DNA from: Patescibacteria group bacterium
GTDB lineage: Bacteria > Patescibacteriota > Patescibacteriia > Magasanikbacterales > GWA2-37-8
Length of the DNA: 64,000 nt
Reading direction: 5' to 3'
Assembly (NCBI GenBank): GCA_041649475.1
Contig: JBAZNA010000001.1
Span: forward strand, 328,612 to 392,611
Below are positions 2,497-38,974 of the stretch, in pieces (position 1 is the stretch's first letter; every line of letters starts with the position of its first letter). The translations under genes and the position numbers were made by a program. The notes under the pieces were generated by a model, which saw nothing but the letters and a program-made list of their open reading frames with translations, was not told the origin of the DNA and did not search any database.

Positions 2497-3899
2497 TGCA
2501 ATTAAAAAAATATATGCCAAAGAAAAAACAGCTGAAAGCGGTAGCCAAAAAGAAGATTTCCAGAAAACCGGAAAAAGAAAAAGCGGAGACATCAGAAAAG
2601 GGCAAGAAGGTATTTAACCTCTTGCGCGGAATGCATGATATTTTACCGAGAGAAGAAAAATATCTGAAACTTTTTTACCACACTGCCGAAAATTTGGCCG
2701 AGGCCTTTCAATTTGGCAGAATAGACACGCCGGCGCTTGAAGAGTCAGGTTTGTTTATCAGATCAATCGGCCGGGGTACGGATGTGGTGGATAAGGAAAT
2801 GTATGTTTTTGAAGACCGCGATGGCAACAAGGTTTGTTTGCGGCCGGAAGCAACTGCTTCAATTGTGCGCGCCTATATAATGCACGGCATGTGGAATATG
2901 CCCCAACCGGTTAAACTATGGTATTGGGGACCGATGTTTAGGTATGATCGCCCGCAAGCCGGGAGATTCCGCGAATTTAGACAGCTTGGGTATGAAACAC
3001 TTGGCGATGGCGATCCGGTAGTTGACGCCGAACTCATCCTAATGGCCTATAATTTTTACAGTGACGTCGGTTTGCCGGTTGAAATACATATTAACAGCAT
3101 CGGCACGCCCGAAGAAAGACAGAGATATAAGACCGCGCTGGTTGATTATTATAAAAGCAAACGCAGTTATCTGTGCGATGACTGCAAACAGCGCTTGCAT
3201 AAAAATCCTTTGCGTCTTTTGGATTGTAAACAAGAAAAATGCCAGCCCATAAAAGAGGAGGCGCCGCAAATCATTGATTGGCTGGGAGAGGACTCAAAAA
3301 GCCATTTCATGAAAGTTTTGGAATATTTGGATGAGTTGTCCATTCCTTATACTTTGCGCCATACGCTGGTGCGCGGATTGGATTATTATACCCGCACCGT
3401 CTTTGAAGTTTATCCGACTATAACCGGAGAGGGAGGCGCCCAAAGCGCCTTAGGCGGAGGCGGAAGATACGACTTATTGGTGGAAGAACTTGGTGGCAAG
3501 CCAACGCCGGCAGCCGGCCTGGCTCTTGGTTTGGAAAGGAGTGTCACCGCTTTAAAACAGTATCTGGAACAGACGCAATCCAAGTTGCCTTTGCCAAAAT
3601 TTGACGCTTATTTAGCTCAACTAGGCGATCAAGCCAGAAGGCGGGCGCTTAAAATTATCAATGAAATGCGCAAATCCGGCTTAAAAGTTGATTATAACTT
3701 TTCCAAGAATTCTTTAAAGAGCCAGTTGGAATCAGCCAACAGCATCCAAGTGCCTTATGCTTTAATTTTGGGTCAAAAAGAGGTTCAGGATGACACCATT
3801 ATTGTCCGTGATATGGAATCCGGCGTGCAGGAAATTGTTGACCAAAAGAAGGTAGAAAACGTGCTTAAGAAAAAATTGTCCAGGTTTGACGTTTCGTAA
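2496..3899 (+). CDS. hisS: histidyl-tRNA synthetase with a Lys-rich N-terminal extension
   Basis: Class II HisRS motifs 'LRGMHDILP' and 'RPEATASIVRAY', plus a C-terminal anticodon-binding region. About 45 Lys-rich residues precede the conserved core. The start overlaps the lepB stop (taATG). Confidence 0.9.
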   Translation: MQLKKYMPKKKQLKAVAKKKISRKPEKEKAETSEKGKKVFNLLRGMHDILPREEKYLKLFYHTAENLAEAFQFGRIDTPALEESGLFIRSIGRGTDVVDKEMYVFEDRDGNKVCLRPEATASIVRAYIMHGMWNMPQPVKLWYWGPMFRYDRPQAGRFREFRQLGYETLGDGDPVVDAELILMAYNFYSDVGLPVEIHINSIGTPEERQRYKTALVDYYKSKRSYLCDDCKQRLHKNPLRLLDCKQEKCQPIKEEAPQIIDWLGEDSKSHFMKVLEYLDELSIPYTLRHTLVRGLDYYTRTVFEVYPTITGEGGAQSALGGGGRYDLLVEELGGKPTPAAGLALGLERSVTALKQYLEQTQSKLPLPKFDAYLAQLGDQARRRALKIINEMRKSGLKVDYNFSKNSLKSQLESANSIQVPYALILGQKEVQDDTIIVRDMESGVQEIVDQKKVENVLKKKLSRFDVS

Positions 3900-3961
3900 A
3901 AAAACGTGTATACTTAAGGCAAAGATAAATTATTCATCAATTAAGAAAGTGAGGTGAATTT

Positions 3962-9300: not shown

Positions 9301-12300
9301 ATGTTGTTGAACATAGTACGCAATCAACCAATGATCTGGAATTGGACTTGAGTCAGGATTATAACAATAACACCGGTAAATGGAAAGATAATACCTGGTA
9401 TCAGGTGATTTTAAGCGCGGATATTTCTGCCGGTGCCGGCACTGCTCTGATGCATCTGGCCAAAGACGCGCCTTGTGATAGTGCGGGTATTACCAATACC
9501 GCTTATTGTTTCTTGTTTAAAACTGATGCTAAGGATTGCAAAATTAAAGCGGTAGCCATAACGCCTTACTCTTACTGGGCATCGGTCTTGGAAGCGCCGA
9601 TTAAATACCGGTCCAGTCCTTCTGATGAGGGTGTGGATCTTGTTTATAGCGGCCATATTTTAAGCGATCAGCATTGTATTTGGATGAACCCGGGCGGATT
9701 GAATTGGGATTGGAACGTGGCCAACCCTGATCCAAACCAGAAAAAATATGCTGACGTTTTTGCTTTAAAAGAAGATACGGTCGTACACAAAACCGATGCT
9801 TTAATTTCGGCTTTGGCCAATACCGTGGGAGTGGGGTTGGCAAATAATTCCGTGGATGTTGAGGCCACGGTTTCAACCGGCACTGTCAGCCATACCGGTT
9901 CAAGCCCACTCAAAATAGATTTAAATACTCCGGAAGTGGTTGACTATTGGCCAAAATGCAATGAGGCCTGCGCTAATGCCGAGGTTGGCGCCAAATTTAA
10001 TACCACCATGTCTGATTTAAATTTAGACAGCGGCGCCGTGCATTTGTATAAATGTTTGGATGAAAATTGCGCGCAGACCCAGCCGGTGGTCTTGCCGTCG
10101 GTTAGTTTTGAAAAAAATTCAAATCCGCCCTATACGCTTTTAGAAATAAATAATTACGGTTTGAACCATGTTGATCTTGAACCGAATACGATTTATGAAG
10201 TGGTTTTGTCAGCCAGCAGTTCTAATCCGAATTCACCGGATCAGCTGTGGTCGGCTTCCAGTTTGTTAACCGATAGAGATGCAGACGGCAACGTCATTGT
10301 TATTGGCCGTTCCGGCACCAGCAAACCATATAATAAACAATTTATTTGGAAATTCACAACCAAACAAACTTCGTGTGCCGTTGATCGTACCGAAGTTTTG
10401 CCCAGTGTCTTTACTGCCAGACAAAATAATGACCGGGCTGTGTTTAATGTTCAGCCATATTCAGCGCCTGATGCCTGCAGTGTCAAAGGCCAAAAATTGA
10501 ATCCCTGGTCAGAGAATTGGGTTTGGAGTTCGTCTGATGTAAACGCGGCCACAGTGGCAACATTTAGCACTCAAGGGTATAGCCCGTATTGCACATCAGA
10601 TTGCATCCGCAGAGGGAGCACACTTCCGGCGGGTAGCGATACGGTTCCGCTTTGCGGAAGCGGCGGCAACCCGCAAGCCGGCCAGGATTGCGTTTTTCCT
10701 GATAAAAATAATAATTGCAGTTTGAATTGCTTGTTTATAAACAAAACCAACACCGGCTCCGCCCAGTCGGCCGGCGCCACCAGCGTCAGTTCATCGGTTT
10801 GCGGAAACGGATTCTTGGGAACAGGGGAGGATTGCGACATCGGCATACCGGCCAACCCGCTTAGTCCGACTTCATCAATGTATTGTTCAAATAAATGCTT
10901 GCATTTGGGCGCCCCGCTTGCATCCAGCTGGTGCAATACTCATTTTACGGATTATGCCGGTTTGGGTTTTACAAAAACAGAATTTGAAGCTGCCTGCGCC
11001 AAGGCAATTAGCGTCTGCGGTGATAAGGTCTTAAGTCCGGACGAAGATCCGGGCTGTGACGGGTCAGGTGGTTGGGATCAAAATTTATGTAATCGTATTT
11101 GTTTGTTAAAATCAAACAACGCTCCGACTGACAATGCGCCGGCTAATAGTTGTTCCAACGGAGGTTGTAATTTGGATAATAAACATGCTGGTTCTTCGCT
11201 CCTATATTCCACGCCTTCAGTTTGCGGAGATAAGGCGGTGGGTATTGGTGAAGACGTTTCCTGTGAAAATAATAATTTTATAACCACCGATCACGTCGGT
11301 AAGACAGATCCGTGGGCCTTGGTTTTGGGCAAAGGGCTTTCAACCAATGTTGGCGGCACACCGCCGGCGCAAAGCTCCACCATTTCCGCAACGGCCAATG
11401 TTAGCGGCAAAAATATTGCGGGGCAGGGCCAATTTGTGATTCCCTGCGGATACAAGACGGATGCTGAATGTAAGAATGCTTTGGGGGATGACTATGGGCT
11501 CGGCGCCAATTCCTGCTGTTATAAAAAACCGGTCTTAACTAAAGTGTACCCCGGTACAACTTCCACTCCAATCGCGCAAAATGTTTGTCCGAACACAGTG
11601 ATTGAAGCGCAGTTCAGCAATTCAATTGATGCTAAAAGTTTACCCGGGAATTTATTAATTGCCCGCGGTATCGGCGAAAATTTTTCCACGAATTTGAATA
11701 TAGACAGCACGGTTGGGTTGAGCGGTTCAAGTCACGTTTTTGTCTCCGGCAATTATGCTTATGTGGCCAACAGTTTAAACGGCCTGAATGTAATCAACAT
11801 TTCCGATTCCAAACATCCATTGCCAATTTGGACACCGCTTAATACTGCCAATTATGCCGATGTTTATGTAATAGGGAAGTATGCTTATATTGTTGATCAG
11901 GGCGCGAATTCTTTAAAAATATTTGATATATCCAGTTCCACGAATCCAACGGTAGTGGGTTCTGTTGATTTGGTAAACATAACCAATCCCAACCGGATTG
12001 TCGTTTCCGGAAAGTTTGCTTATGTGATTAGCGCTAATGGTGGAAACATAATCAATGTCGCCAATCCAGCCGGTCCTACTTTTTCAACCAAGTTATCAAT
12101 CTCACCAAGACAAATCCAGCCGGCCGGAAACAATATTGCTTTGTTGGATAATAATAATTTTACGATAATGGATTTTTCCGACCCCGCCAATCCCAGGACA
12201 ATCGGTTCAGTCCAAGTCAATGATGCTCAAGATTTTAAAGTTTCCGGAAATTATGCCTTTTTAGCCGGCACCGGCGGTCTGCAAATTTTGGATATTTCCA

Positions 12301-14036
12301 ATCCGGCCAATCCGCACAGTGTGGCCGCTCTCACCGCAGGGTCCCTTAGTAGTATTAATGTTTATAATAGTTTGGTTTTTGCGACTGATGCTTCCGGAGC
12401 AATACACATCATAGATGTTTCCGATCCCGCCATTCCCAAGAATCTTGAGGTGTATACCGGATTGGTACACGCGGGTTATGTGTCGCAAAACATTGCGGTT
12501 AGCGGCAATTATGCCTATGCGGTCCATAGTAGCGGTTTGACCATAGTTGATGTTTCAAAATATACAAATAATTGCCCGGCCAATTCTGATGTCACGAATT
12601 TAATTGTTTTGAATAGTCCGAACGCCAATTTACCGTGGTATGAAAAGATTTGGACAAATATTGTGCAATTTGTAAAATCATTATTCGGATTTACAGCCAC
12701 GGCCCAAAGCAATACCCCGACTAAATGGTGCGCCGGCCTTGATTTGGGCACGCCCGCCATGTTATCAAGCAGTACCATAATGGTGAAACTACAAGCGCCT
12801 TTGGCTTTAGACACCAGTTATGCCATCATTTTAAAGCATGGTCTCAAAGACACAAATGGCGTCAGTATTGATACCAGCACTAATTGGAGATTTGTAACCG
12901 CGCCTAAGATTTGTCAGGTCAGTGGTGTTAGTGTGACTCCAAATGCAGTGGCTTTTGGCAGTGTGGGGCAGACCAGCACCCTAGAGGCCAAGGCCCTGGC
13001 GGCGAGTGGCGGTGAAATACAAATTATACCCGGATATTATGCCTGGGAATATGTTTGGGGTCCCAGCAGTAATGCCTTTGTTACTTTGACAAACACCACC
13101 TCATCGCTCAATATGATTACTGCCCAAAATCGGAATGGTGAACTTGATGTTTGGGCTTCCGCTAATATAACTGACAATAAATACACCAGCCAGACCGGCC
13201 CGGCGGCAACCGGCAAGTCGCACGTGATTGTTTTCCTGTGTGAAAATCCCTGGCCGCCGAAGAATTTATATTATAATAATCAGGGGCCGTTTATGATTTT
13301 CCCTTATGAAGATAAATTGGGGAATAATGATAATTATAATTTAACGGCCGATAGTTTTGATAATACGGCTCTGCCGGCATCTCCGTTTGGCGGATACTTC
13401 AATTTTAGAACTTATTATTGCGCGGATAACGGCGCGCCCGGAACGGCCGATGATTTGCCTTATATGCGCGCGGCCGTACAGGTTTCACCGACGATTGTGA
13501 GCGACGCCACTGCTTTTAAACGTTTCATATTTACCAGCGCCAAAAACAATGACGCCATTGGTATTCAGGTCTTTCCCAATACCCAGCACTTAACGGTTGA
13601 ACAGTGGTTCCAATATGGCAAGACCTATGGCGGTCAGGGATTTGTCACCGGCGGAAATATGCAGCCAACCACCATAGACGGTTATGACGCGCTTTCCGAC
13701 GGCAATAATATTTACGTTGACGCGCTCAATTACGCTACGACATCGCCGGTTTCGGGGAATTTATATACCAATGTATATCTCTTTAGTATAAACGCCGATG
13801 CCCGGCCCGAAACCAGGAAGGTCTTTGAACAAATGATTAACAATTGGCATTTTAATATTAATCTAACTAATTACAGACGCTGTGGCGTGGATGTGGAGAG
13901 TCCCGGCGACACTTCTTGTCAGACCGACCTTGATTGTTCAGGTGGACAGATTTGTTCCGCGCAAATTGATAAATTAAAACGCAATTATCAAAGATTGCGG
14001 GATTTAAATGAAATTCAAAAAGCATTAGGGCAATAA
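6333..14036 (+). CDS. giant (2567 aa) secreted surface protein with pilin-like N-domain, 4x IPT/TIG, Myxococcus-type Cys-rich repeats and an LVIVD beta-propeller
   Basis: Signal peptide plus the same two-helix N-domain. Four TIG-like units ('RITGVSPGSGAVGTYVSISGEYFG', 'ITISGKNFGA', 'LTITGNNFGA', 'MKIYGEYFGG'). 'VCGNGFLGTGEDCD' and 'CGDKVLSPDEDPGCDG' repeats. Repeated 'VSGNYAYV..(L/I).V.D(V/I)S.P..P' blades at ~nt 11700 to 12600. Confidence 0.8.
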   Translation: MPAKFKKIFIILSAVAVIAGGLFWFAQISNAQQGPDLGLAQVSSTIGLPTTDIRVIVANIIRTALGLLGIVALVLVLYGGYTWMTAGGNEEKIAQAKKILVNAVIGLAIILSAYAITSFIISSLLGATTGTPAHCFDGIQNEGETAVDCGGGGCGPCTAPNNPYFTSGAFYITALPAGGQVCIRNVNPAITFNMDVDAASLAGSVVLLDNNNNEQAGVWSVVDGNTAKFTPVGACGAPDNGNDCLLASTNYTLHFKNGGAIKSADGRAINCLAGAKCTDVQFTTGDGIDRTPPTVKIENIADDKLVTGQVVPVKISYTDDNGVQKIDLKADNNYVGSGTVSGCQKTGSVTINWPTAGLSDGAHGLDAKGYDWSMQSAVDHYAAILKPPHCLNNILDGNEDQAGPLGCCAPEKNCGCGGCGGSSCTQDTDCASGYCKIPPGQTTGVCVDRMRITGVSPGSGAVGTYVSISGEYFGTARGQVYFTGASGWLVAPLADCGAGAWKPWQVIATVPQGAITGPIRLITADQQFVDVTNDNVVGPLIPDFVVNNLVRPGICSLDKTNGLPSDSITISGKNFGAVQLANSAVSFGQLQAFINVWGDTTIKTKVPMLSAGPAAVKVTKENIDSNSVAFFVGEGINSTTPTITSISPDHGAKGEYLTITGNNFGAEQGRVWFKVNNNGQPANDQDAINGSFDFPAGCKDNIWSDSKIIVKFPESAGQTGQTYFVQVRPSEIDKGWSPIGPTFKLETGNPAPGICGISPASGPVPFGTGADPMKIYGEYFGGSPDVYFWNTNADASTITGRIKAANPNISGSDLNVFPPNNTQTGPVVVFRSSDSKMSNSALFTVSNCVQNGNSCSQAGYHCCAAGPEAGMCKTDLCIDEKISAGYIWRFATQPIPKVPHLVERCDSQSDAGKNVPSPSPSVQWDTNDSGDHHNVCRTASIVLDFSVDNINPIPRGDILVSECESSTVNVASRTCTQLTPRPSFLGSGDYVVEHSTQSTNDLELDLSQDYNNNTGKWKDNTWYQVILSADISAGAGTALMHLAKDAPCDSAGITNTAYCFLFKTDAKDCKIKAVAITPYSYWASVLEAPIKYRSSPSDEGVDLVYSGHILSDQHCIWMNPGGLNWDWNVANPDPNQKKYADVFALKEDTVVHKTDALISALANTVGVGLANNSVDVEATVSTGTVSHTGSSPLKIDLNTPEVVDYWPKCNEACANAEVGAKFNTTMSDLNLDSGAVHLYKCLDENCAQTQPVVLPSVSFEKNSNPPYTLLEINNYGLNHVDLEPNTIYEVVLSASSSNPNSPDQLWSASSLLTDRDADGNVIVIGRSGTSKPYNKQFIWKFTTKQTSCAVDRTEVLPSVFTARQNNDRAVFNVQPYSAPDACSVKGQKLNPWSENWVWSSSDVNAATVATFSTQGYSPYCTSDCIRRGSTLPAGSDTVPLCGSGGNPQAGQDCVFPDKNNNCSLNCLFINKTNTGSAQSAGATSVSSSVCGNGFLGTGEDCDIGIPANPLSPTSSMYCSNKCLHLGAPLASSWCNTHFTDYAGLGFTKTEFEAACAKAISVCGDKVLSPDEDPGCDGSGGWDQNLCNRICLLKSNNAPTDNAPANSCSNGGCNLDNKHAGSSLLYSTPSVCGDKAVGIGEDVSCENNNFITTDHVGKTDPWALVLGKGLSTNVGGTPPAQSSTISATANVSGKNIAGQGQFVIPCGYKTDAECKNALGDDYGLGANSCCYKKPVLTKVYPGTTSTPIAQNVCPNTVIEAQFSNSIDAKSLPGNLLIARGIGENFSTNLNIDSTVGLSGSSHVFVSGNYAYVANSLNGLNVINISDSKHPLPIWTPLNTANYADVYVIGKYAYIVDQGANSLKIFDISSSTNPTVVGSVDLVNITNPNRIVVSGKFAYVISANGGNIINVANPAGPTFSTKLSISPRQIQPAGNNIALLDNNNFTIMDFSDPANPRTIGSVQVNDAQDFKVSGNYAFLAGTGGLQILDISNPANPHSVAALTAGSLSSINVYNSLVFATDASGAIHIIDVSDPAIPKNLEVYTGLVHAGYVSQNIAVSGNYAYAVHSSGLTIVDVSKYTNNCPANSDVTNLIVLNSPNANLPWYEKIWTNIVQFVKSLFGFTATAQSNTPTKWCAGLDLGTPAMLSSSTIMVKLQAPLALDTSYAIILKHGLKDTNGVSIDTSTNWRFVTAPKICQVSGVSVTPNAVAFGSVGQTSTLEAKALAASGGEIQIIPGYYAWEYVWGPSSNAFVTLTNTTSSLNMITAQNRNGELDVWASANITDNKYTSQTGPAATGKSHVIVFLCENPWPPKNLYYNNQGPFMIFPYEDKLGNNDNYNLTADSFDNTALPASPFGGYFNFRTYYCADNGAPGTADDLPYMRAAVQVSPTIVSDATAFKRFIFTSAKNNDAIGIQVFPNTQHLTVEQWFQYGKTYGGQGFVTGGNMQPTTIDGYDALSDGNNIYVDALNYATTSPVSGNLYTNVYLFSINADARPETRKVFEQMINNWHFNINLTNYRRCGVDVESPGDTSCQTDLDCSGGQICSAQIDKLKRNYQRLRDLNEIQKALGQ

Positions 14037-14040
14037 TTGT

Positions 14041-17000
14041 ATGCGTAAAAAAGCAAGTTTGATTATAATGTTTCTGTTCATGGTGCCGCTTATAAAAGAA
14101 GGATCATTTTTAAGCGGACAGAGTTTGAGCGTTTGGCCGTCCTGGTCTGTTTTAGGCAACGCGGTTGGCGTAGCTTTACCGGTTGATCCGATTAATAAAC
14201 TGGCGCCGGCCGGCACCTGCGCTTCTTCAACCAATCATTTCTGCGTAAAGAACACTGATTGCCCGGCTATGATCGGCACAACCACGCCGGAGAGTTGTAT
14301 TTTGCACGATCCGGCCACTGGCTGGAGCACTGTTAATCGTCGGTTTAGCTTCGCTTGCTCCACTTCTTCTTATGCTTACAGATATATTGACATCTCCACC
14401 ACCACCTACAAAATTTTAGCGCATTTTGAAGATCCTTTTGGTAACAGCAACGCGATTGCCAATTGGAATGATAATTTTGTATATAAATTTGTCAGCACCA
14501 CTGAATCGCCAAATCATAGTTATATTGTAATAAGCCAGCAGTATGGCATATGCAATAATGATCAGGAGATATCAACCCTTCAGCAGGGTTCTTGCGGTGA
14601 CAAGGTCTTGAATCCGAACGAGCAGTGCGACCCGCCGGGAAGCATGAGATATAGCGCTTGTTCGCCGGACGCGATTCATCCTAACCAAATCAGAGTTGAT
14701 AAATGCGGCACGGACTGTAAGTGGTCAGTTGCGCCAACCTATATATTATGTTCGGCTTTAAGCAAATGCGGCAATGGCATTATAGAATCAGGAGAACAAT
14801 GTGATGATGGCCGGTTAAACGGAACCTATAATCATTGCAATACAAGTTGTACGGGAAAAGTTGCCCCTTATAGTTCACATAACCCAAACGGATCCCCGGG
14901 TTATTGCGGTGATGGCGTTTCGCCAAACTATATAGTAAATCCAAAATATGAGGTCTGTGATAAGGGCGGAGTTGATTTTTGGGCGTTGCAAAGAGCGAAT
15001 TCCTGCAGTTGGAACTGCCAAGGGTATGGGCCTTATTGCGGCGATGGTGTTAAAAACGGTTCGGAAGAATGCGACGGTAACCAGCCATGTACGGCAAGCG
15101 GAAAAAATGGAACGATAGTGTGCGATAACACCTGTCATATAGTTTATCCGACCCAACAACCGGCCGTGGCAAATGATTTTGCCTTGTGGACTTTTGATAA
15201 CACAGACATGAATGGATCCACAATTATAGATAAAAGCGGAAACGGTCAGGATGCGATGGCTTATGGCACCTATTCAATTGTAAACGGCCATTCCGGACAG
15301 GCCATACAATTTGATGGACAAACAGCATTTGTTTCCAGCACCGTTATGAATTTTTATAAATATTTTTCAGCTGATTTTTGGATGAAGATCAACCAAACGG
15401 ATAATAATTGGCGAATGATTATGGCTGAAAATAATTGGAACGCGGGTCTGGGTTGGATGATGTATACAAGTCAGGGTTCTGCTAGCGGCAAAGCCAATTT
15501 TACCTATATGCGGTCTGGATATTCCGGAGTTGCCGTTGCTGATGCGTTTGATGTTGGTGTTTGGCAGCATGTTAAGGTTGTAAACAACAATGGCTCCGCA
15601 AAGGTGTATGTTAATGATATTTTAAAAGGCAGCGGTGCGGTTAGTATAAGCAATGCCGGTAATAACCTGCTTGTGGGAGCCGGCCATAATAATGATGGAA
15701 CCGGTGCTTCAGGTTATTTTAATGGAATAATAGACGAAGTTCATATAGCTAATAGTTCCACTACGCCACTGCTCCAATCATGCACTGTCGCGGTCAGTCA
15801 AGAGCCCACCAGTACTCCCGGGGCCTGTGGTGATGGACACGTAGATGCCAGTGAGGCCTGTGACAAGGGAGCGAATAATGGTAAGCCCTGTACGCCCGGA
15901 TACGATAAGGCCTGTTCTTACTGTTCGGCCGATTGCCAGAATGTGATTGATGTCCAGCCCACTGCTTATTGCGGCAATGGCCTGATAGAAGGAACAGAAG
16001 TTTGCGACACTGATCCTGGTAATGGAGATATTTATGTTTCCAGCACGGTATTTTGTACGCCGACAAATGAAGGCGGTCATGGCGGCGGTTTGACCTGCAA
16101 TTATCCTGATATTCTTAAATATACCTTTCAAAATCCGGTAACCGGACACGGTGGGCTCAAAGTTGTGAAGGATTGTGAAAGCGAAACTGCAAATGCGAAC
16201 ACCGTTAAAAAAGGTATTAAGGCCTGTGTTAATAATTGTAAAGCGGTGAAATTGACGACTGGAGAGGATCAATGCATAGCCTGCGGTTTAGATCCGGTAA
16301 ATGGCGTTGAAGTGGGTGGTTATGTGCTTAATGCGATTGATCCACTTTCAGGAAATCCGCTGATGGGAGTCGGTGGGCATACTGGTAGCCAGACCAAACT
16401 GGAGCTTTATTTGGGAACAAAGAAAGATTTTTCCTTCTCTCCCATTACTGCTACTAAAGTTACCGGCTATTGCGCGGCCAATACGTTCTATAAAAATTAT
16501 TCATTTTCAAGTTCCGTTCATCCTGACGCTTGTAATAACACCAGAGGGCTGTTAAATCCAAATCCGATTTGTTCCACCGGAAAAACCAGTTATAAGCTGA
16601 TTGTTAATGATGGTACTACTCATGTTTTTCCATTTTCAGTTATATCTGATCCGCTTGAAAAACAACCTTGGAGAAATGACTTACTGTTATCGCCGATGAT
16701 ACCACAACCCAGTCATATCAGGGTGGTGGTCAGCTGGGTCGGCGACGGAGAATTTTATAGCGGATTTTTAGACCCAGCCCAAACCAGCGATCCGATTATT
16801 GAGGGGTCTAAGTTTGTGACCGGCGATTATGTTGACCAGACTGTGGTTTACAATTATTCCACAGGTAAGGATTATTATACCCAAACTGATTCGGATCATA
16901 AAAAATTAGGTATTTGGTATCATGGCTTTGGCGATACTCCTAATTTGTTAAAAGAGGAGTCGTTTACAGTTGATACTGCAAATATGGATTCCGGTAATTA

Positions 17001-17841
17001 TGTTTTTTATGTCAGATCCGGAGGTCCGATTAAGCCATATCAGGTTTCGGCAAATTTGAAAGTGGAGGTTTATTTGCCGGAAGGTGATACTAATTATCGC
17101 CATTTCGGTTTGCCGGCGGCAACTTATTATTTAAGCGGCGCCTTGCCGTCTGATAGTCCGGCCGCGAGTTATTGGCAGGTCTTTAATATCGTTGATTCAA
17201 ACGGCACCGTGACCTTAGCGGATAATATCCTGGACGTTAATTCAATTGTTTCTGCCCCAAGATACTTTATTTATTCAACTTCTTGTATTGGCCGGGCCGG
17301 AAGATTATGCCGGGCATCGGCCGGACCTTGCGACACTGCCGAATATTGTGTGGCCGGAAATGATGTTTGTCCGGAAGATTCTTTTAGATCGGCCACGGCT
17401 TATTGTTATGACAATCTGGCTAGCAAACCGTGTTACAGCGGGGCCACCTGCAGTGGTTATTCTGCAGATTGTCCGCAAAGCACATATAAAGCGGCTGGTT
17501 TAACATGCACGGGCTTTGTGGTTGACAGTGAATGTGAGAATCCAGCAACCTGCAATGGAACCTCTTATGAATGTACCGGTAGTTTAACCTTAAAACCAGA
17601 CGGCACCTCATGCGGAAATGTGTGTAATAACAATGTTTGTCAGGGCGGATCCTGCAGAGCTGGCACCCCGACCAACTGTGCCAGCAGTAACCCCTGTAAA
17701 AATCCGGTTTGTGATCCTCTGATTGGTTGTACCTATAAACCAATAGGATCTCCTTGCAGTACTACTTCAGGTTCCGGTACTTGTCAGTTTCATTTGGGAG
17801 GTGGAGATCAGATTACATGTAAATATACCATCATCTACTAA
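14041..17841 (+). CDS. secreted 1266 aa Cys-rich protein with Myxococcus-type CGDG/ECD repeats, a LamG_3/concanavalin-like lectin domain and a Cys-rich C-terminal module
   Basis: Signal peptide. Repeats 'YCGDGVKNGSEECDGN', 'KCGNGIIESGEQCDDGRLNG', 'ACGDGHVDASEACDKG' and 'YCGNGLIEGTEVCDTD'. LamG_3-like region ending 'GIIDEVHIANSSTTP' (compare 'DEVRIYNRALS'). C-terminal ~200 aa with more than 30 Cys. Confidence 0.75.
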   Translation: MRKKASLIIMFLFMVPLIKEGSFLSGQSLSVWPSWSVLGNAVGVALPVDPINKLAPAGTCASSTNHFCVKNTDCPAMIGTTTPESCILHDPATGWSTVNRRFSFACSTSSYAYRYIDISTTTYKILAHFEDPFGNSNAIANWNDNFVYKFVSTTESPNHSYIVISQQYGICNNDQEISTLQQGSCGDKVLNPNEQCDPPGSMRYSACSPDAIHPNQIRVDKCGTDCKWSVAPTYILCSALSKCGNGIIESGEQCDDGRLNGTYNHCNTSCTGKVAPYSSHNPNGSPGYCGDGVSPNYIVNPKYEVCDKGGVDFWALQRANSCSWNCQGYGPYCGDGVKNGSEECDGNQPCTASGKNGTIVCDNTCHIVYPTQQPAVANDFALWTFDNTDMNGSTIIDKSGNGQDAMAYGTYSIVNGHSGQAIQFDGQTAFVSSTVMNFYKYFSADFWMKINQTDNNWRMIMAENNWNAGLGWMMYTSQGSASGKANFTYMRSGYSGVAVADAFDVGVWQHVKVVNNNGSAKVYVNDILKGSGAVSISNAGNNLLVGAGHNNDGTGASGYFNGIIDEVHIANSSTTPLLQSCTVAVSQEPTSTPGACGDGHVDASEACDKGANNGKPCTPGYDKACSYCSADCQNVIDVQPTAYCGNGLIEGTEVCDTDPGNGDIYVSSTVFCTPTNEGGHGGGLTCNYPDILKYTFQNPVTGHGGLKVVKDCESETANANTVKKGIKACVNNCKAVKLTTGEDQCIACGLDPVNGVEVGGYVLNAIDPLSGNPLMGVGGHTGSQTKLELYLGTKKDFSFSPITATKVTGYCAANTFYKNYSFSSSVHPDACNNTRGLLNPNPICSTGKTSYKLIVNDGTTHVFPFSVISDPLEKQPWRNDLLLSPMIPQPSHIRVVVSWVGDGEFYSGFLDPAQTSDPIIEGSKFVTGDYVDQTVVYNYSTGKDYYTQTDSDHKKLGIWYHGFGDTPNLLKEESFTVDTANMDSGNYVFYVRSGGPIKPYQVSANLKVEVYLPEGDTNYRHFGLPAATYYLSGALPSDSPAASYWQVFNIVDSNGTVTLADNILDVNSIVSAPRYFIYSTSCIGRAGRLCRASAGPCDTAEYCVAGNDVCPEDSFRSATAYCYDNLASKPCYSGATCSGYSADCPQSTYKAAGLTCTGFVVDSECENPATCNGTSYECTGSLTLKPDGTSCGNVCNNNVCQGGSCRAGTPTNCASSNPCKNPVCDPLIGCTYKPIGSPCSTTSGSGTCQFHLGGGDQITCKYTIIY

Positions 17842-17842: not shown

Positions 17843-18241
17843 ATGAAAAAAATAATTATAATTATATTGGTTGTTTTGCTGGCGGGAGTTGGTATATTTG
17901 TATATTTGCGGATAAAAAGTAATAAAACCAGCCAGACCAATCCGCAGGATATTAAAAGAGCGGAATTTTTACAAAAACAAACCCAGTTTAACAATTCAAT
18001 CCAGACCATCGTTCAAACCGATAGTGATGCCGACGGCTTGTCAAATACGGATGAGGCCAAATACAAGACGGACCCAAACAACGCGGACACAGACGGGGAC
18101 GGTCTGACTGATAAAATTGAAATTTCGGTTTATCATACTGATCCGCTTAAAGCCGATACCGACGGAGATGGTTTTCCGGATGGTAAAGAAGTCAGATACC
18201 GCACCAATCCGCTTGATGTTAAAAGTCATCCAACTAAATAA
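17843..18241 (+). CDS. membrane-anchored protein with thrombospondin-type-3-like calcium-binding DxDxDG repeats (paralog 1; start trimmed from 17801 to the ATG at 17843, 1 nt after the upstream stop)
   Basis: 'MKKIIIIILVVLLAGVGIFVYL' anchor, then 'DSDADGLSNTDE...DTDGDGLTDKIE...DTDGDGFPDGKEV'. Confidence 0.65.
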   Translation: MKKIIIIILVVLLAGVGIFVYLRIKSNKTSQTNPQDIKRAEFLQKQTQFNNSIQTIVQTDSDADGLSNTDEAKYKTDPNNADTDGDGLTDKIEISVYHTDPLKADTDGDGFPDGKEVRYRTNPLDVKSHPTK

Positions 18242-18256
18242 TTTAAATATACCTTT

Positions 18257-19006
18257 ATGTTTGAAGACCAAAACCCACAAGCCAACCCGCCAAAAAATCT
18301 GCCGACCGAGCCGGTGGATATGTTTGCCGGTGTGGAAAAAAACACCGAGCCCGCGATTCCCGATGCCTTGTCGGCCGGGTTGCTTAAGAAAAAAGATTCA
18401 AGAATCCAAACTCCTCCGGATCTAAACACCTTAACGGCCCAAACCCAGACCTATAAGATCAGCGAACCGATCTTTGGCAAGGTTGCTTACGCTTTAATCA
18501 TCGCGGCCATTGTGGTTGGTTTGGCCGGTGGGGGCTGGTTTGTTTATGCCAAATATTTTAGGGCGACAAACACTATTATTCAAACTCAGGTTCAAACCCA
18601 GACACCTTTACCAGAACCTCCACAAACTACAGAACCGACACCCTCCGCTCAAGTCAATGAAACTGCGGCTACCCCCAGCGTCACTGCCACCAGTAATATT
18701 TCCAATGATGTTCAAAATGATAATATACTTTTTGGAAATACAGTAGATAGCGATAAAGACGGATTAAGCGACGCGCGCGAAACACAAATCGGCACTGATC
18801 CGCAAAATCCCGATACTGACAGCGACGGGCTGTCAGACGGCGATGAGGTTTTGATTTGGCATACTGATCCGCTCAAAGCCGACACCGACGGCGATAGTTT
18901 TCCGGATGGCCAGGAGGTGCGGAGCGGTTATGATCCGCTCGGACCGGGAAAATTATTTAGTGTTCCAACCCCGACAACCTCACCGGTGTCAACAAGCTCA
19001 AAGTAA
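18257..19006 (+). CDS. membrane-anchored TSP3-like calcium-binding repeat protein (paralog 2)
   Basis: TM 'IIAAIVVGLAGGGWFVYAKYF', a Thr/Pro/Gln-rich linker, then 'DSDKDGLSDARE...DTDSDGLSDGDEV...DTDGDSFPDGQEV'. Confidence 0.65.
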   Translation: MFEDQNPQANPPKNLPTEPVDMFAGVEKNTEPAIPDALSAGLLKKKDSRIQTPPDLNTLTAQTQTYKISEPIFGKVAYALIIAAIVVGLAGGGWFVYAKYFRATNTIIQTQVQTQTPLPEPPQTTEPTPSAQVNETAATPSVTATSNISNDVQNDNILFGNTVDSDKDGLSDARETQIGTDPQNPDTDSDGLSDGDEVLIWHTDPLKADTDGDSFPDGQEVRSGYDPLGPGKLFSVPTPTTSPVSTSSK

Positions 19007-19016
19007 ACGTTAATAT

Positions 19017-20117
19017 ATGTTTGCACAAAAAAAACAGGCGCCCGCCGAAACTGAAGAACAATTAGTACGGGTTCAAACCATCCCGAATGATTTTTATGGG
19101 GGAGTGAACCCGGTGGTTAAGTTTAAAAGAGTTGAAAAAGAGGTGGTGCTCCAACCAAAATTGTCTCCGACTGAAAAGGGCTTACTTGATAAAGCCACCG
19201 CGGTCGGCGGTTCCGAGGCCTTGCATCCGGTTAATTTGGTTTCTAACCGGAAGTACTTGCTGATCGGCGGAGCAGCGCTGTTTGTTTTGTTTATTGCCGG
19301 CGCCAGCTGGTATTATATTCGGCAAGCATATCCGAATAAACCGGTTACACCCGCACCCGTGCCCATAACAAATAATCCGGTGGAAACCGTTCCGGTGGTT
19401 GCGGAAACTTCAACCGAAACGAGCGTTGTTACCCCTGAACCCACCTCCACCGTTCCACAATTTTCAGCCGAAGCGCCGATTGAGTTTCCTTCAAAGCTTC
19501 TTGTTGAAAGCGTGGATACTGATCAAGACGGGTTAACCGATGTGGCCGAGGAGGTTTTTAGAACCGACCCAAATATACCGGATACTGATAATGACAGTTA
19601 TAATGACGGCTTAGAGGTTTATAATTTATACAATCCAAACGGCATCGCGCCGGTACGGCTCATTGATTCCGGATACGTGAAGGATTTTGTCAACCCGACT
19701 TTTGGCTACGAGTTATATTATCCGGCCGATTGGGCCGCCGGTAATGTGGATGGCAGTTATAGGGACATGCTTTTTAGTACTTTGGGCGGAGAAAATATTG
19801 AGGTTAGAGTTTTTGACCATGATCCGGCCCTAAGTTTTGCTGACTGGTTCGGACAGTGGGCCCCTGACCAAAATTATGGCGATCTGACTACTTTTGGCGG
19901 TTATTTTAAAGATCAGGGCATGGCCAGAAGCGATCATCTGGTTTACTATTTTTATGATGCCAACCACGCGTATGTAATTGTCTATCACACCACCGATTCA
20001 ATGACGGCTAATTATAAGTCAATCATTACAATGATAGCCAGAAGTATGAGATTACCCGCTACCGAGCCAACTCCAACCGAAGCTACTACCACTGAAGCTA
20101 CTACCACCGCCCTATGA
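19017..20117 (+). CDS. membrane-anchored TSP3-like repeat protein with an extra C-terminal domain (paralog 3)
   Basis: TM 'LLIGGAALFVLFIAGASWYYI', 'DTDQDGLTDVAEE...DTDNDSYNDGLEV', a ~150 aa C-terminal domain of unknown function, and an 'ATTTEATTTAL' tail. Confidence 0.6.
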   Translation: MFAQKKQAPAETEEQLVRVQTIPNDFYGGVNPVVKFKRVEKEVVLQPKLSPTEKGLLDKATAVGGSEALHPVNLVSNRKYLLIGGAALFVLFIAGASWYYIRQAYPNKPVTPAPVPITNNPVETVPVVAETSTETSVVTPEPTSTVPQFSAEAPIEFPSKLLVESVDTDQDGLTDVAEEVFRTDPNIPDTDNDSYNDGLEVYNLYNPNGIAPVRLIDSGYVKDFVNPTFGYELYYPADWAAGNVDGSYRDMLFSTLGGENIEVRVFDHDPALSFADWFGQWAPDQNYGDLTTFGGYFKDQGMARSDHLVYYFYDANHAYVIVYHTTDSMTANYKSIITMIARSMRLPATEPTPTEATTTEATTTAL

Positions 20118-20536
20118 TTTCTGTTTACATAAATCGGGAGATAAAAGCGTCGCCATCTGATCAGGAAATAAAAAAAATATTAAGTTTAATTGGAAAAAAG
20201 TTAAAATTCGCCGGCCAGATTGAGATAAATATTATTGGCGAAAGCGTGATTAAAAAATTAAATAAAAAATACCGCAAAAAAGATAAAGTGACGGATGTGC
20301 TGTCGTTTGCCTGGCAAGAAGATAAAATAATAAACAGTGATTTTATCGGCCAGATTTATATCTGCTATCCGCAAATACAAAGACAGGCGAAGGAATTTAA
20401 GGTGTCAGCCGGCGAAGAATTTATCAGAATTTTGACGCACGGGGTTTTGCACCTGTTGGGTTATGACCATGTGGAAGAAAATGGTGCCAAAAAAATGTTC
20501 AAAATCCAGGAAGACATAGTTAAAAAGTTTTTATGA
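20114..20536 (+). CDS. ybeY: rRNA maturation endoribonuclease YbeY
   Basis: 'HGVLHLLGYDH' zinc-binding motif. 140 aa. Overlaps the upstream stop. Confidence 0.85.
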   Translation: MISVYINREIKASPSDQEIKKILSLIGKKLKFAGQIEINIIGESVIKKLNKKYRKKDKVTDVLSFAWQEDKIINSDFIGQIYICYPQIQRQAKEFKVSAGEEFIRILTHGVLHLLGYDHVEENGAKKMFKIQEDIVKKFL

Positions 20537-20901
20537 TTTCACTTAAGCGTTTTTTTAAAAGTTTTATTCATGCCCTGCGCGGACTGGCCTTTGTTTTTAA
20601 TTCCGAACAAAATTTTCGCCTGCAGGTGTTGGTAGGGATACTGGTAATGATAGCCGCGTTTTATTTCCCGTTGCGCAACTTGGAAAGGATAGCGCTGATG
20701 ATGCTGGTCTTACTGGTTTTGTTGGTAGAAATTTTAAATACCGCCTTTGAGTATTTCAGCGATTTATTAAAACCGCGCTTACATCATTATGTGCATATTG
20801 TAAAAGATTTGATGGCCGGAGCTGTTTTTTTGACATCACTGGTGGCGGCGATTGTGGGGGCCATTATCCTCCTGCCTCACTTCATAAATTTGTTCAAATG
20901 A
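20533..20901 (+). CDS. dgkA: diacylglycerol kinase (prokaryotic DgkA family)
   Basis: 122 aa with 3 TM segments and the 'EILNTAFE' signature. 4 nt overlap with ybeY. Confidence 0.8.
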   Translation: MISLKRFFKSFIHALRGLAFVFNSEQNFRLQVLVGILVMIAAFYFPLRNLERIALMMLVLLVLLVEILNTAFEYFSDLLKPRLHHYVHIVKDLMAGAVFLTSLVAAIVGAIILLPHFINLFK

Positions 20902-20917: not shown

Positions 20918-22186
20918 ATGAAACGCGGACATAATCATTTAATTAGCGGCCTTGATATCGGTTCGGACATGGTGAGAATGGCTGTGGGACAATTGGCTGA
21001 AAAAGAAAACGGAGCACCGGAACTGCAAATTTTAGGGGCCGCTGAATATGCCTCTGAAGGCGTGCACAAGGGTGTTATCAGCAGTATTGAAGATGTTGTA
21101 TCTTCAATTTCCGGCTGTCTGGAAAGAGCAGAAAGAGTTGTGGGCGTGCCGGTTGACACGGCCTGGGTTGGAATTTCCGGATTGCATATTTTGCCGCAAA
21201 GCAGTAAAGGCGTGGTGGCTGTCTCAAAATCAAACAGTGAAATAGCCGGAGAAGACGTGGCCCGCGCGCTTGAGGCGGCCAGATCCATTGCCACACCGCT
21301 CAATTATGAGGTTTTGCACGTTTTGCCCTGTGCCTATACGGTTGACGGTCAGACCGGCATCAAAGACCCGATTGGCATGACCGGCGTTCGTCTTGAGGTT
21401 GATGCCCATATTATTTTAGGTGCATCTTCGCAGATCAAAAATCTAACCAAAGCCGTATATCGCGCCGGCATTGATATTGAGGATATGGTGCTTTCCATTT
21501 TGGCCACAGCCGAAGCCGTTGTCACCAAAAGACAGAAAGAATTGGGGGTGGCAGTCATAAATCTGGGCGGTTCAACCACCAGTTTGGCGGTTTTTGAAGA
21601 AGGCGAGCTGCTTCACACTGCGGTTTTGCCGGTTGGGTCAGAACATATTACCAATGATGTGGCTATTGGCCTGCGCACTTCGGTTGATATGGCCGAGAGG
21701 GTAAAACTTGAGTTTGGCGATTGTGTGCCTAATTTAACTGTCAAAAATGATGAAATTGATTTGTTTGACGTGGGGTCGTCTGATCATGAATTAATTAAAA
21801 AGAAATATTTAAGTGAAATAATTTCGGCCCGGGTTGAAGAAATTTTACAAAAAGTTGATGAGGAATTGCGGCGCATCGGGCGCAGCGGCCTGCTCCCGGC
21901 CGGAGTGGTGTTTACCGGCGGCGGCGCCAAACTTCCCGGTCTCACTGAAATGGCAAAAAAGGTTCTGCGTTTACCGGCCACTTTGGGCTATCCGATAAAC
22001 ATGACCAGCGTTACTGACAAAATCAATGATTTGGGTTTTGCCACTGCCATTGGTTTGGTTAAATGGGGTACTAATATGATGGGAGCCGGCGCGAGCAGGC
22101 CTGATGGTGCGCTCATGCGCAACTTAAAAGGCCTTGGTAATGCCGGCGGCAACTTCAAAAAATGGATAAAAGCACTTATCCCATGA
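20918..22186 (+). CDS. ftsA: cell division protein FtsA
   Basis: Actin-like ATPase start 'ISGLDIGSDMVRMAVGQ'. Immediately upstream of ftsZ. Confidence 0.85.
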   Translation: MKRGHNHLISGLDIGSDMVRMAVGQLAEKENGAPELQILGAAEYASEGVHKGVISSIEDVVSSISGCLERAERVVGVPVDTAWVGISGLHILPQSSKGVVAVSKSNSEIAGEDVARALEAARSIATPLNYEVLHVLPCAYTVDGQTGIKDPIGMTGVRLEVDAHIILGASSQIKNLTKAVYRAGIDIEDMVLSILATAEAVVTKRQKELGVAVINLGGSTTSLAVFEEGELLHTAVLPVGSEHITNDVAIGLRTSVDMAERVKLEFGDCVPNLTVKNDEIDLFDVGSSDHELIKKKYLSEIISARVEEILQKVDEELRRIGRSGLLPAGVVFTGGGAKLPGLTEMAKKVLRLPATLGYPINMTSVTDKINDLGFATAIGLVKWGTNMMGAGASRPDGALMRNLKGLGNAGGNFKKWIKALIP

Positions 22187-22312
22187 GGGTGTTTTTGTTT
22201 GCTTGACAGCGCCAAAGTTAACCTATAAACTATATAGCGGAGAAAAGCTCCGTTATTTATTTAGAAGAGGGTGAACACAAATTGTGTTCAAGAATTTTTT
22301 TAAACTATTTAT

Positions 22313-23536
22313 ATGCCTCAAGTAAAACCGGACATTGAAACATTTGCCAAAATAAAAGTTGTTGGTGTCGGCGGCTCCGGCGGATCAGCCGTCAATAGAA
22401 TGGTTGCCAGCAGAATTAGAGGGGTAGATTTTATAGTCATGAACACAGATGTTCAGGCCTTGCATCATAACAGCGCTCCGCAAAAATTACATATCGGTAA
22501 AAGTGTCACCAGAGGATTGGGAGCGGGAATGGATCCGGATATAGGCAGAAAAGCGGCCGAAGAGTCGCAAAATGAAATCAGAGAAACACTAAAAGACGCG
22601 GACATGGTTTTTATCACTTGCGGCTTGGGCGGAGGCACAGGCACCGGCGGCGCGCCGGTAGTGGCCGCGGTTGCCAAAGATGTTGGCGCGTTAACAGTGG
22701 CGGTTGTAACCAAACCGTTTGGTTTTGAAGGGCCAAAACGATCTGACATTGCCGACAGGGGTTGGGAACAGCTGGCCAAAAATGTTGATGCGATTATCAC
22801 CATACCCAATGACAGGATTCTTCAGGTCATTGATAAGAAAACCACATTGCTTGATGCTTTTAGAATTGCCGATGAAATCTTAAAACAAGGCGTGCAAGGT
22901 ATTGCTGAACTCATTACCATTCCTGGGCTCATTAATGTTGATTTTGCCGATGTCAAAACAATCATGAAGGATACTGGTTCGGCTTTGATGGGCATAGGCA
23001 CAGGGAGCGGCGATAACAAAGCGACGGAAGCGGCCAAGTCGGCTATTTCCAGTCCGCTTTTGGAATTGTCCATTGACGGCGCCAGAGGTATACTGTTTAC
23101 CATTACCGGCGGTCCGGATATGACTATGACCGAGGTTAGCGAGGCAGCCAAAATTATCACCAGCTCGGCTTCGCCGGACGCCAAGGTTATTTTTGGCGCC
23201 ACTATAGATGATAGTTTAACCGGCAATATGCGTATCTGCGTGGTGGCGACCGGCTTTGATGACCGTCGGCCAAATATGCCGGCAGTTGAAGACGAATCGC
23301 AATCTTTTTTTGGCGCCGGCAAATTCACCCCCAGCAATTTTATGCGCAAGATGCAGAAGGATGAAGAAGAGGAAGAAAAGAAATTTAAACAAATTATCCA
23401 AAAGAACGCGCCGGTCGCGCCGGTTAATAATAAAAGAGCGCCCGAACCATTTTCTGCTTCTTCGGCTTCAGCGCCGAAAAGCGAAGATGAAGAATTGGAA
23501 ATTCCGGCCTTTATAAGAAAGAAAATGGGAATATAA
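22313..23536 (+). CDS. ftsZ: cell division GTPase FtsZ
   Basis: 'GVGGSGGSAVNRM', tubulin signature 'GGGTGTGGAP', an acidic 'DEEEEEKK' linker, and a C-terminal 'EIPAFIRKK' FtsA-binding peptide. Confidence 0.95.
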   Translation: MPQVKPDIETFAKIKVVGVGGSGGSAVNRMVASRIRGVDFIVMNTDVQALHHNSAPQKLHIGKSVTRGLGAGMDPDIGRKAAEESQNEIRETLKDADMVFITCGLGGGTGTGGAPVVAAVAKDVGALTVAVVTKPFGFEGPKRSDIADRGWEQLAKNVDAIITIPNDRILQVIDKKTTLLDAFRIADEILKQGVQGIAELITIPGLINVDFADVKTIMKDTGSALMGIGTGSGDNKATEAAKSAISSPLLELSIDGARGILFTITGGPDMTMTEVSEAAKIITSSASPDAKVIFGATIDDSLTGNMRICVVATGFDDRRPNMPAVEDESQSFFGAGKFTPSNFMRKMQKDEEEEEKKFKQIIQKNAPVAPVNNKRAPEPFSASSASAPKSEDEELEIPAFIRKKMGI

Positions 23537-24014: not shown

Positions 24015-24443
24015 ATGTTTAAACATGACAAAATTCCGGAACAAAGTTCCGAGGCGGAGAAAAAAACAGACGGAAAAGACGAAGCGAAAATTGAAGTAGC
24101 ACAACCCAAAAAAGAAGAAAGTTTGGAGGATTTAGTTCGGAAGAATTTGAAGTGGTCGCAGATTATTTATGAACAGAACCGGAAGATAAATAACAAATTG
24201 CTGTGGTCGGCCGTTGTCAGCTGGCTGTATTTTATTTTAATAGTCGCTCCGCTTATTTTGGGCATTATATTTTTGCCGCCGTTAATTAAGAATGTCTGGT
24301 CGCAGTATGGCGATTTGTTGGGAGGTATAACCGGCACGACCCAAAATTCCGGCTCCAGTCAAAGCACCATAGACAGCTTTATTAAAATGTTGAATCTGGA
24401 TCCGGCCAAACAGGCGCAGGTAAAGGCCCTGATTAATAAATAG
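24015..24443 (+). CDS. hypothetical membrane protein
   Basis: Charged N-terminus and one long hydrophobic segment. Tight 3 nt spacing after nrdR. No recognisable motif. Confidence 0.45.
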   Translation: MFKHDKIPEQSSEAEKKTDGKDEAKIEVAQPKKEESLEDLVRKNLKWSQIIYEQNRKINNKLLWSAVVSWLYFILIVAPLILGIIFLPPLIKNVWSQYGDLLGGITGTTQNSGSSQSTIDSFIKMLNLDPAKQAQVKALINK

Positions 24444-38285: not shown

Positions 38286-38300
38286 AATTAAGTATGAATA

Positions 38301-38963: not shown

Positions 38964-38974
38964 CTATTATGTTT

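Follow-up and report, generated by a model that had tools for sequence, protein, structure and literature searches.

Here we show that three tandem genes, termed P1, P2 and P3, on a 64,000-nucleotide (nt) stretch of a Magasanikbacterales genome (Patescibacteria; assembly GCA_041649475.1, contig JBAZNA010000001.1; hereafter the window) encode real, paralogous, single-pass membrane proteins that are lineage-wide in, and specific to, the Magasanikbacteria. By its sequence, the repeat module that the trio has in common belongs to the bacterial TSP3 family and not to the thrombospondin type-3 family proper, and the genes are embedded in a block, extending from giant pilin-fusion genes to ftsA, ftsZ and beyond, that is far more stable than its surroundings.

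All three genes are on the + strand. P1 (17843-18241; 132 amino acids (aa)) is a signal-anchored protein in which the residues MKK precede a transmembrane segment (residues 4-22; nt 17852-17908), a variable linker, three TSP3_bac repeats (nt 18020-18223) and a terminal NPxxx cap. P2 (18257-19006; 249 aa) and P3 (19017-20117; 366 aa) are predicted to be type II membrane proteins. In P2 a disordered tail containing NLPxEPxDMFAGVE and PDALSAGLLKKK (nt 18287-18397) is followed by a transmembrane helix (residues 72-100; nt 18470-18556), a Thr/Pro/Gln-rich linker, three TSP3_bac repeats (nt 18746-18955) and a Ser/Thr-rich end. P3 comprises a tail with the motif TIPxDFYGGxNPVVKFKxVEKEV (nt 19065-19148), a transmembrane helix (residues 78-104; nt 19248-19328), a Thr/Pro-rich linker, two degenerate TSP3 repeats (nt 19482-19637), an alpha/beta domain resembling PsbP and Mog1 (nt 19638-20051) and a Thr/Glu/Pro-rich tail. 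Each protein has a single strong hydrophobic segment, which AlphaFold2 (AF2) models as the helices given above for P2 and P3, none contains a cysteine, and the repeat modules are strongly acidic (isoelectric points of 4.0-4.3). P1 and P2 are 40 % identical (BLASTP E 9e-29), a 125-nt stretch of the two genes being 72 % identical in DNA, and P2 and P3 are related at E 1e-9. An earlier sequence-only reading of this DNA had proposed three paralogous open reading frames (ORFs) here, each with one transmembrane segment and two or three repeats, and the ORF list, BLASTP, the regular-expression search and Pfam bear this out. Its placement of the anchor at the N-terminus holds for P1, but not for P2 and P3, in which the anchor lies behind conserved tails of ~70 and ~78 aa, respectively.

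The repeats of P1 and P2 match the Pfam family PF18884 (TSP3_bac; gathering score 25 bits) with scores of 78.9 bits (E 2.4e-22) and 64.6 bits (E 6.7e-18), each over three stretches. The P3 protein of the window, at 13.2 bits, is under this threshold; 11 of its 36 aligned orthologues match the family at E<=0.01, the best at 3e-8. Repeats start at residues 60, 82 and 105 of P1, 164, 186 and 209 of P2, and 167 and 189 of P3. Every unit displays a DxDxDGxxD ladder, and in the P2 and P3 families (28 and 36 aligned sequences, respectively, 42-78 % identical to the window proteins) the Asp columns are invariant or at least 90 % conserved; those of both DxDxDxxxD units of P3 are invariant or nearly so. 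The repeats of P1 and P2 thus fall, above threshold, in a recognised Ca2+-binding family, as had been anticipated; the family that had been suggested for them, the thrombospondin repeat TSP_3 (PF02412), was unmatched at E<=1 in P1, P2 and P3, and the conserved cysteine pairs were likewise absent. Membership of the eukaryotic TSP_3 family or of the EF-hand families was rejected because Pfam gives no significant match. The parallel with OmpA fared no better: no OmpA Pfam domain, including OmpA_C, was matched in the trio, and the OmpA-family structure 5wtl was hit weakly through the repeats alone (E 0.71).

The nearest solved structure to the P2 repeats is the Ca2+-binding tandem in region B of Staphylococcus aureus Bap (phmmer E 3e-4), the matched segment of which we take, from its motif sequences, to be EF-hands 2-3. 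The P2 repeat region is modelled by AF2 with a predicted local distance difference test (pLDDT) score of ~88-95 and overlays the Bap structures 7c7u and 7c7r with a root-mean-square deviation of 0.7-0.8 A over 44-45 residues that are 53-55 % identical (Foldseek), such that modelling of the putative loops, which had also been proposed, yields a backbone, in models without ions, that fits the Bap tandem. Millimolar Ca2+ stabilises Bap and prevents it from aggregating, an effect exerted via EF-hand motifs 2-3 of region B (PMC4915627). By analogy, the trio repeats most likely work like the Bap tandem, and would bind Ca2+ and rigidify upon binding. The Bap tandem, like the trio, is cysteine-free. 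Bap itself, however, is a cell-wall-anchored protein of 2276 aa whose tandem forms part of a large domain, whereas that of the trio is borne by itself on a stalk; the trio has none of the remaining Bap architecture, and nothing here points to amyloid behaviour.

The same 22-23-residue repeat, D-x-D-x-D-G-x-x-D-x-x-E ... T-D-P, occurs in other bacterial TSP3 proteins (CglD, MtsC/MtsD, TraB and OmpA-family proteins), where it is extracytoplasmic and presumed to bind Ca2+; indeed CglD and MtsD of Myxococcus are the best partial NCBIfam matches of the trio repeats. These known proteins are outer-membrane or lipoprotein components of diderm bacteria with beta-barrel, OmpA_C or VWA domains. In the trio, by contrast, the ectodomain of a protein that crosses the cytoplasmic membrane once consists almost entirely of the repeats, and the tail motifs are additional. 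OmpA-type proteins, too, have TSP3 repeats that bind Ca2+ (Dai et al. 2017, cited in PMC12045341), and the title of that paper, as it appears in PMC12045341, makes binding dependent on an intra-repeat disulfide, while the trio lacks cysteine. A looser parallel is provided by thrombospondin and COMP, in which an Asp-rich Ca2+ 'wire' leads into a globular domain. P3 is similarly arranged, its repeats and C-terminal domain being modelled as one unit (pLDDT >90 for residues 150-350, from AF2 run with the family alignment), and the LamG-like and Cys-rich domains of the trio's upstream neighbours loosely echo the thrombospondin domain repertoire. The C-terminal domain of thrombospondin, however, is an L-lectin jelly roll and that of P3 is PsbP-like, and neither PF02412 nor the cysteines are present in the trio, so the resemblance is one of analogy and not of membership.

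The linear motifs in the tails that precede the membrane helix of P2 and P3 are as strongly conserved as the repeats. Expressed as the mean fraction of sequences with the majority residue, conservation in P2 is 0.84-0.85 for the tail motifs, 0.84 for the repeats and 0.31 for the linker, and in P3 it is 0.71 for the tail motif, 0.72 for the repeats, 0.65 for the C-terminal domain and 0.37 for the linker. In P2 the conserved elements of the tail are NLPxEPxDMFAGVE, PDALSAGLLKKK and a juxtamembrane PILGK, with P12, N14, L15, P16, E18, P19, D21, A24, A37, G41 and L43 invariant, and in the P3 motif P23, F26, P32 and F36 are invariant. A common core, P-x-D-hydrophobic-[FY]-[AG]-G, lies equally far from a conserved MF start in both families, ~20 residues from the N-terminus. 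The two tails are homologous to each other: hhalign aligns them in register with E 1.4e-3, where a reversed control gives 0.4, and reaches 85 % probability when the transmembrane helix is included. Motif and helix together were absent from every other ORF of the window and, among ~4000 six-frame ORFs of the fetched loci, from all those outside the two families. Both tails, like both linkers, are disordered in the AF2 models. Because linear motifs that are conserved within an otherwise disordered tail typically mark a binding site, the P2 and P3 motifs would form the docking site of a cytoplasmic partner protein, and the two proteins would therefore be more than passive anchors. The P2 core xDMF resembles the beta-clamp-binding pentapeptide QADMF, a parallel that is implausible for a membrane protein.

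This assignment of the tails to the cytoplasm follows from an inferred N-in/C-out topology, in which the repeats of all three proteins are outside the cell. P1 has only MKK ahead of its transmembrane segment, which requires export of its repeat module, and the modules of P2 and P3 are paralogous to it. In addition, no signal peptide precedes the long tails of P2 and P3, and the Thr/Pro/Gln-rich linkers and acidic modules resemble extracytoplasmic Ca2+-binding modules.

The additional C-terminal domain that had been noticed in P3 is indeed present, spanning residues ~208-345 (~140 aa), and its model points to an alpha/beta fold of the PsbP/Mog1/DUF1795 type. Foldseek searches of the PDB retrieved BT_1490 (3hlz, E 2e-4), CyanoP (2lnj, E 6e-4), plant PsbP (1v2b, E 1e-3, target TM-score 0.53) and Tsi3 (3wa5, E 2e-3), these matches having probabilities of 0.98-1.0 and target TM-scores of 0.34-0.53. 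Sequence similarity of the window protein is under the family thresholds (14.8 bits against PsbP, PF01789, with a cut-off of 23.5 bits; a weak NCBIfam PsbP match; PsbP 2xb3 at E 0.3 in a PDB profile search). Among the 36 aligned P3 sequences, 12 match PsbP at E<=0.01, the best at 1.7e-5, and one orthologue is named 'PsbP-related protein' by NCBI. Members of the PsbP/Mog1 fold family are largely protein-binding modules, and Tsi3 is an immunity protein. P3 shares the fold with PsbP, CyanoP, Mog1 and DUF1795 proteins but has no photosystem context, and its domain is fused to TSP3 repeats, a transmembrane helix and a tail motif. When a profile of the domain alone was searched against 1.84 billion representatives, E-value limits of 1e-30, 1e-10 and 1e-3 gave 180, 726 and 1286 clusters, respectively. 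Among the matches listed the position of the domain fits the P3 architecture in 150/150, and the 15 most divergent of these all have the tail motif, the transmembrane helix and two repeats; the ~550 weaker matches, with E between 1e-30 and 1e-10, may be either fragments or genuinely distant relatives.

Orthologues of P2 and P3 form clusters in the hundreds, aligning over their full length at 42-76 % identity, and the P1 family yielded a consensus from 62 sequences. The P3 protein of the window is 100 % identical to the hypothetical protein WC526_01725 of a Patescibacteria group bacterium. All informatively named relatives, in protein and locus searches alike, are from Candidatus Magasanikbacteria or Magasanikiibacteriota, and this was still the case, with the same gene block, when the C-terminal domain profile and a divergent query were used. 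Many of the records that carry the block (L005, L007 and L008 among them) are titled 'uncultured Gammaproteobacteria', 'Candidatus Udaeobacter' or 'Kapabacteria', and these titles look wrong. The same applies to the labels 'Fibronectin type III', 'von Willebrand factor type A' and 'Peptidoglycan-associated outer membrane protein' attached to orthologues; the last, borne by a P2 orthologue, is unfounded in that there is no OmpA match. Analysis of the trio thus corrects misleading orthologue labels.

A scan of GTDB species representatives returned 196 stretches with a P3 relative, 80 of which were compared for gene order by scripted ORF prediction and BLASTP; the upstream side was visible in 75 of the 80. 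The order was the same in 80/80 loci: a giant T4SS_pilin protein, usually a P1-type gene, P2, P3, ybeY, dgkA, ftsA, ftsZ, nrdR, a gene corresponding to the 142-aa ORF of the window, and pyk. P2 and P3 are universal; the small P1-type gene accompanies P2 in 60/75 loci and P2 stands alone in the other 15. The giant gene is upstream of the trio wherever it could be seen (75/75 GTDB loci, the additional loci L086 and L087, and a JGI contig), in agreement with the expected co-localisation of trio and pilin-fusion genes. In the window LamG1266, the gene immediately upstream, ends at 17841, one nucleotide before P1, and the stop of P3 overlaps the start of ybeY (20114-20117), so that the trio ends, as had been described, where ybeY (20114-20536), dgkA (20533-20901), ftsA (20918-22186) and ftsZ (22313-23536; all +, identified by Pfam) resume. 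Median gaps across the loci are 12 nt between the LamG gene and P1, 8 between P2 and P3, 2.5 between P3 and ybeY, 3 between ybeY and dgkA, 35 between dgkA and ftsA, and 142 between ftsA and ftsZ. Even in a divergent branch, in which P3 is 35-40 % identical, and in L085, the block is intact, with a giant of 3600-3900 aa, small and medium TSP3 genes, P3, and ybeY to nrdR; in this branch the genes after pyk differ. As a control, the gene that follows pyk in the window is retained in 30/56 loci, and UMPH-1 in 2.

The trio genes are probably on one transcript with the upstream giants. Consensus promoter-like sites, themselves weak evidence, occur in intergenic or near-start positions only before the first gene of the block, G700 (3886-3914), just before ftsA, and before ftsZ. 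The spacer between ftsA and ftsZ (22187-22312, 126 nt), the first large gap of the block in all loci, contains the last of these sites (22203-22231) and hairpins at 22234-22256 and 22272-22290, and may be a regulatory region for ftsZ. The 142-aa gene between nrdR and pyk (24015-24443) has no Pfam match and is kept in 64/64 loci in which its position is visible; its sole match is a weak one to the PADLOC model PycTM (E 1e-3), and the PADLOC defence models yielded nothing meaningful.

Upstream of the trio, G700 (4229-6331, +; 700 aa), a surface protein, opens the co-directional block and has an N-terminal VirB2-like T4SS_pilin domain (Pfam; Mbov_0395 pilin-like in NCBIfam) and Big_5. G2567 (6333-14036, +) encodes a giant surface protein of 2567 aa with a T4SS_pilin anchor, Big_5, Big_7, TIG and LVIVD repeats. 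Each has three N-terminal hydrophobic segments, comprising a signal-like segment and the two transmembrane helices of the VirB2-type T4SS_pilin domain, and because these helices are present both proteins are self-anchored or polymerising. LamG1266 (14041-17841, +; 1266 aa), with Laminin_G_3 and Cys-rich repeats (Pfam, NCBIfam), has one N-terminal hydrophobic segment only and is secreted or anchored. The three contain 17, 78 and 68 cysteines, respectively, compared with none in the trio. The LamG part is a separate gene of 1100-1500 aa in ~22 loci and in most others forms the C-terminal portion of a fused giant, giving ORFs of >3000 aa; these states represent a gene fission or fusion polymorphism in the lineage.

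Further information on the design of the trio comes from a divergent relative (L088:334-5443; ENA ERZ27286485 k119_904953), on a contig that ends 334 nt upstream of the trio. Here the P2 homologue has the tail ENPADDLFSEVD, a transmembrane helix and three repeats, and both the P2 and P3 homologues have acquired, behind an acidic linker, a C-terminal cupredoxin (Copper-bind) domain. A 652-aa protein with Kazal and cupredoxin domains is inserted between P3 and ybeY, and all three cupredoxin domains are closely similar. This arrangement suggests surface-displayed copper proteins on a TSP3 scaffold, and on this evidence the P2/P3 scaffold is a membrane-anchored stalk that displays extracellular modules.

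The interpretation that we tentatively favour is that the trio forms an adaptor or display layer in the envelope, close to the membrane and stabilised by Ca2+, that is co-produced with the giants and tied to a cytoplasmic partner. The repeat modules would be held on disordered Thr/Pro/Gln-rich stalks on the outside of the cytoplasmic membrane and stiffened by Ca2+; translation of the trio would be from one tightly packed transcript that it shares with the VirB2-pilin-anchored giants; the layer would dock or space the giants and the trio members among themselves; and the tails of P2 and P3 would link it to the partner inside the cell. That the trio organises the giant proteins, as the sequence-only reading had ventured, is plausible. 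It should be stressed, however, that several observations weigh against this proposal. G700 and G2567 have membrane anchors of their own and so do not obviously need a docking partner, P1 is missing from 15/75 loci and is hence dispensable, and the linkage of the trio to ybeY-dgkA-ftsA-ftsZ is equally tight (80/80 loci), such that the giants are not singled out. Indeed, because the whole block is invariant, synteny does not separate an association of the trio with the giants from one with ftsA and ftsZ. Moreover, K+R counts of 2.0-2.5 on either side of the P2 and P3 helices leave the positive-inside rule undecisive, and Ca2+ binding is deduced from motif and backbone similarity, in AF2 models that contain no ions.

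One alternative, which we regard as rather unlikely, is that these are surface proteins that depend on Ca2+ and act independently (as adhesins, as Ca2+ sensors or buffers, or as generic display stalks). Their location would then have been fixed by chance within a long run of co-directional genes in a small genome, and they would have no particular partner on either flank. TSP3_bac repeats are found in many unrelated surface proteins (CglD, MtsC/MtsD, Amuc_1099, OmpA-family proteins and Bap), the scaffold in L088 carries unrelated cupredoxin modules, P1 can be dispensed with, and the presence of the unrelated genes ybeY, dgkA, nrdR and pyk indicates that co-location within the block need not mean co-function. 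An accident of position, however, sits uneasily with retention of the block at divergences where adjacent synteny is lost and with the conservation of translational-coupling distances on both sides of the trio, and the conserved tail motifs imply a specific intracellular partner. That partner could belong to the divisome. The trio would then consist of bitopic analogues of FtsB/FtsL/FtsQ or of tethers of the FtsN/ZipA type, whose tails bind FtsA, FtsZ or another septal protein and whose ectodomains touch the septal wall or envelope. FtsB, FtsL and FtsQ are bitopic proteins of graded size, the largest having a globular C-terminal alpha/beta domain, and the trio reproduces this pattern; like FtsQ/DivIB, FtsL and FtsB(DivIC), it would comprise three single-pass N-in proteins encoded near ftsA-ftsZ. 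The trio is, in addition, tightly packed into one block with ftsA-ftsZ, both in 80/80 loci and in the divergent relatives, with overlap of the P3 stop and ybeY start and median gaps of 2.5-3 nt up to dgkA; it retains its place before ybeY-ftsZ in L088 despite altered domain content; its cytoplasmic linear motifs are strongly conserved; and no FtsQ/POTRA gene adjoins ftsA in the window. Nevertheless, POTRA and FtsQ_DivIB_C were unmatched in Pfam at E<=1 and FtsQ was not among the top 50 Foldseek matches, leading us to reject P3 as an FtsQ/DivIB homologue; coiled coils are absent; and ftsA is separated from P3 by ybeY and dgkA, in the window as in 80/80 loci, whereas an ftsQ/divIB gene would be expected directly upstream of ftsA. 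The tail motifs were also rejected as copies of the FtsZ C-terminal peptide, as the hydrophobic residues of the FtsZ end, ELEIPAFIRKKMGI, are differently spaced, and FtsA, with its own C-terminal amphipathic helix, does not need an extra tether. On balance a divisome function is unlikely.

The tails invite another explanation, that they are sorting or secretion signals akin to YSIRK/GS or to extended signal peptide regions, perhaps removed after insertion. The fixed position of the motif at residues ~19-25 in both families, with a conserved MF start, and the S26 signal peptidase gene upstream in the window (1894-2496) are compatible with such a role. The P2 and P3 alignments, however, contain no conserved AXA-type cleavage site after the transmembrane helix, the tails extend over 70-80 aa with second conserved elements (PDALSAGLLKKK and PILGK) that are better explained as binding motifs, and P1 has the same ectodomain yet lacks the motif, making this explanation very doubtful. 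Finally, that the ORFs are chance frames, or the repeats an artefact of composition, is refuted to a degree approaching certainty by Pfam E-values of 1e-18 to 1e-22, full-length orthologues, conserved gene order and confident AF2 models.

There is also a bolder proposal, which we consider quite improbable: the trio would be a Ca2+-dependent transmembrane coupling complex, unique to the Magasanikbacteria, in which the TSP3 repeats and the PsbP-like head hold the giant pilin-anchored surface fibres and the tails bind FtsA, FtsZ or another cytoskeletal protein. If so, the division machinery would determine where the surface layer is assembled, or would itself be influenced by that assembly; the trio would replace the ftsQ-type gene that is missing upstream of ftsA; and the retention of giants, trio and ftsA-ftsZ in one translationally coupled block across the lineage would be explained.

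Several features of the remainder of the window merit comment. Positions 1-1804 begin with 1405 nt from the 3' end of a 16S rRNA gene, then contain tRNA-Val(GAC) and tRNA-Ile(GAT), after which comes the signal peptidase gene and not tRNA-Ala and 23S rRNA; the rRNA genes thus appear to be unlinked here. At 39233-41119 a gene for an ECF-type sigma factor precedes one for a DUF5667 protein, likely as a sigma/anti-sigma pair, and the 2-kb bin that overlaps the start of this pair (38001-40000) has the lowest GC content in the window (0.352). No Pfam match at E<=1e-3 was obtained for the ORFs at 41247-45014 (1255 aa, +) and 47045-49225 (726 aa, -), and the 758-aa ORF at 59818-62094 has a faint beta-propeller match only. 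A tRNA-Pro(GGG) gene (53342-53415) overlaps the 5' end of the listed HAD hydrolase ORF (53315-54247), the true start of which is probably further downstream, and an Rfam ribosomal protein L10 leader (58642-58784; 70.5 bits) is upstream of the ORF at 58753-59313.

The TSP3 repeat family and the PsbP-like fold are already known. By contrast, we found in no paper the architecture described here, in which a tail motif, transmembrane helix and stalk lead into a cysteine-free TSP3 tandem with or without a PsbP-like head, or the three-gene set fixed between giant pilin-fusion genes and ybeY-dgkA-ftsA-ftsZ across the Magasanikbacteria; nor did we find a paper that ties TSP3 repeats, pilin-fusion proteins of Patescibacteria or Magasanikbacteria, or FtsQ of the candidate phyla radiation (CPR) to the locus. 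Cells of the Patescibacteria/CPR are tiny, mostly uncultured and thought to be attached to hosts, and to our knowledge almost nothing is known of their envelope, of the organisation of their giant surface proteins or of their division. The trio represents a strongly conserved envelope set with conserved motifs on either side of the membrane, and it offers experimental handles in the form of short tail peptides, small soluble ectodomains and a candidate link between cell surface and cytoplasm in a CPR lineage.

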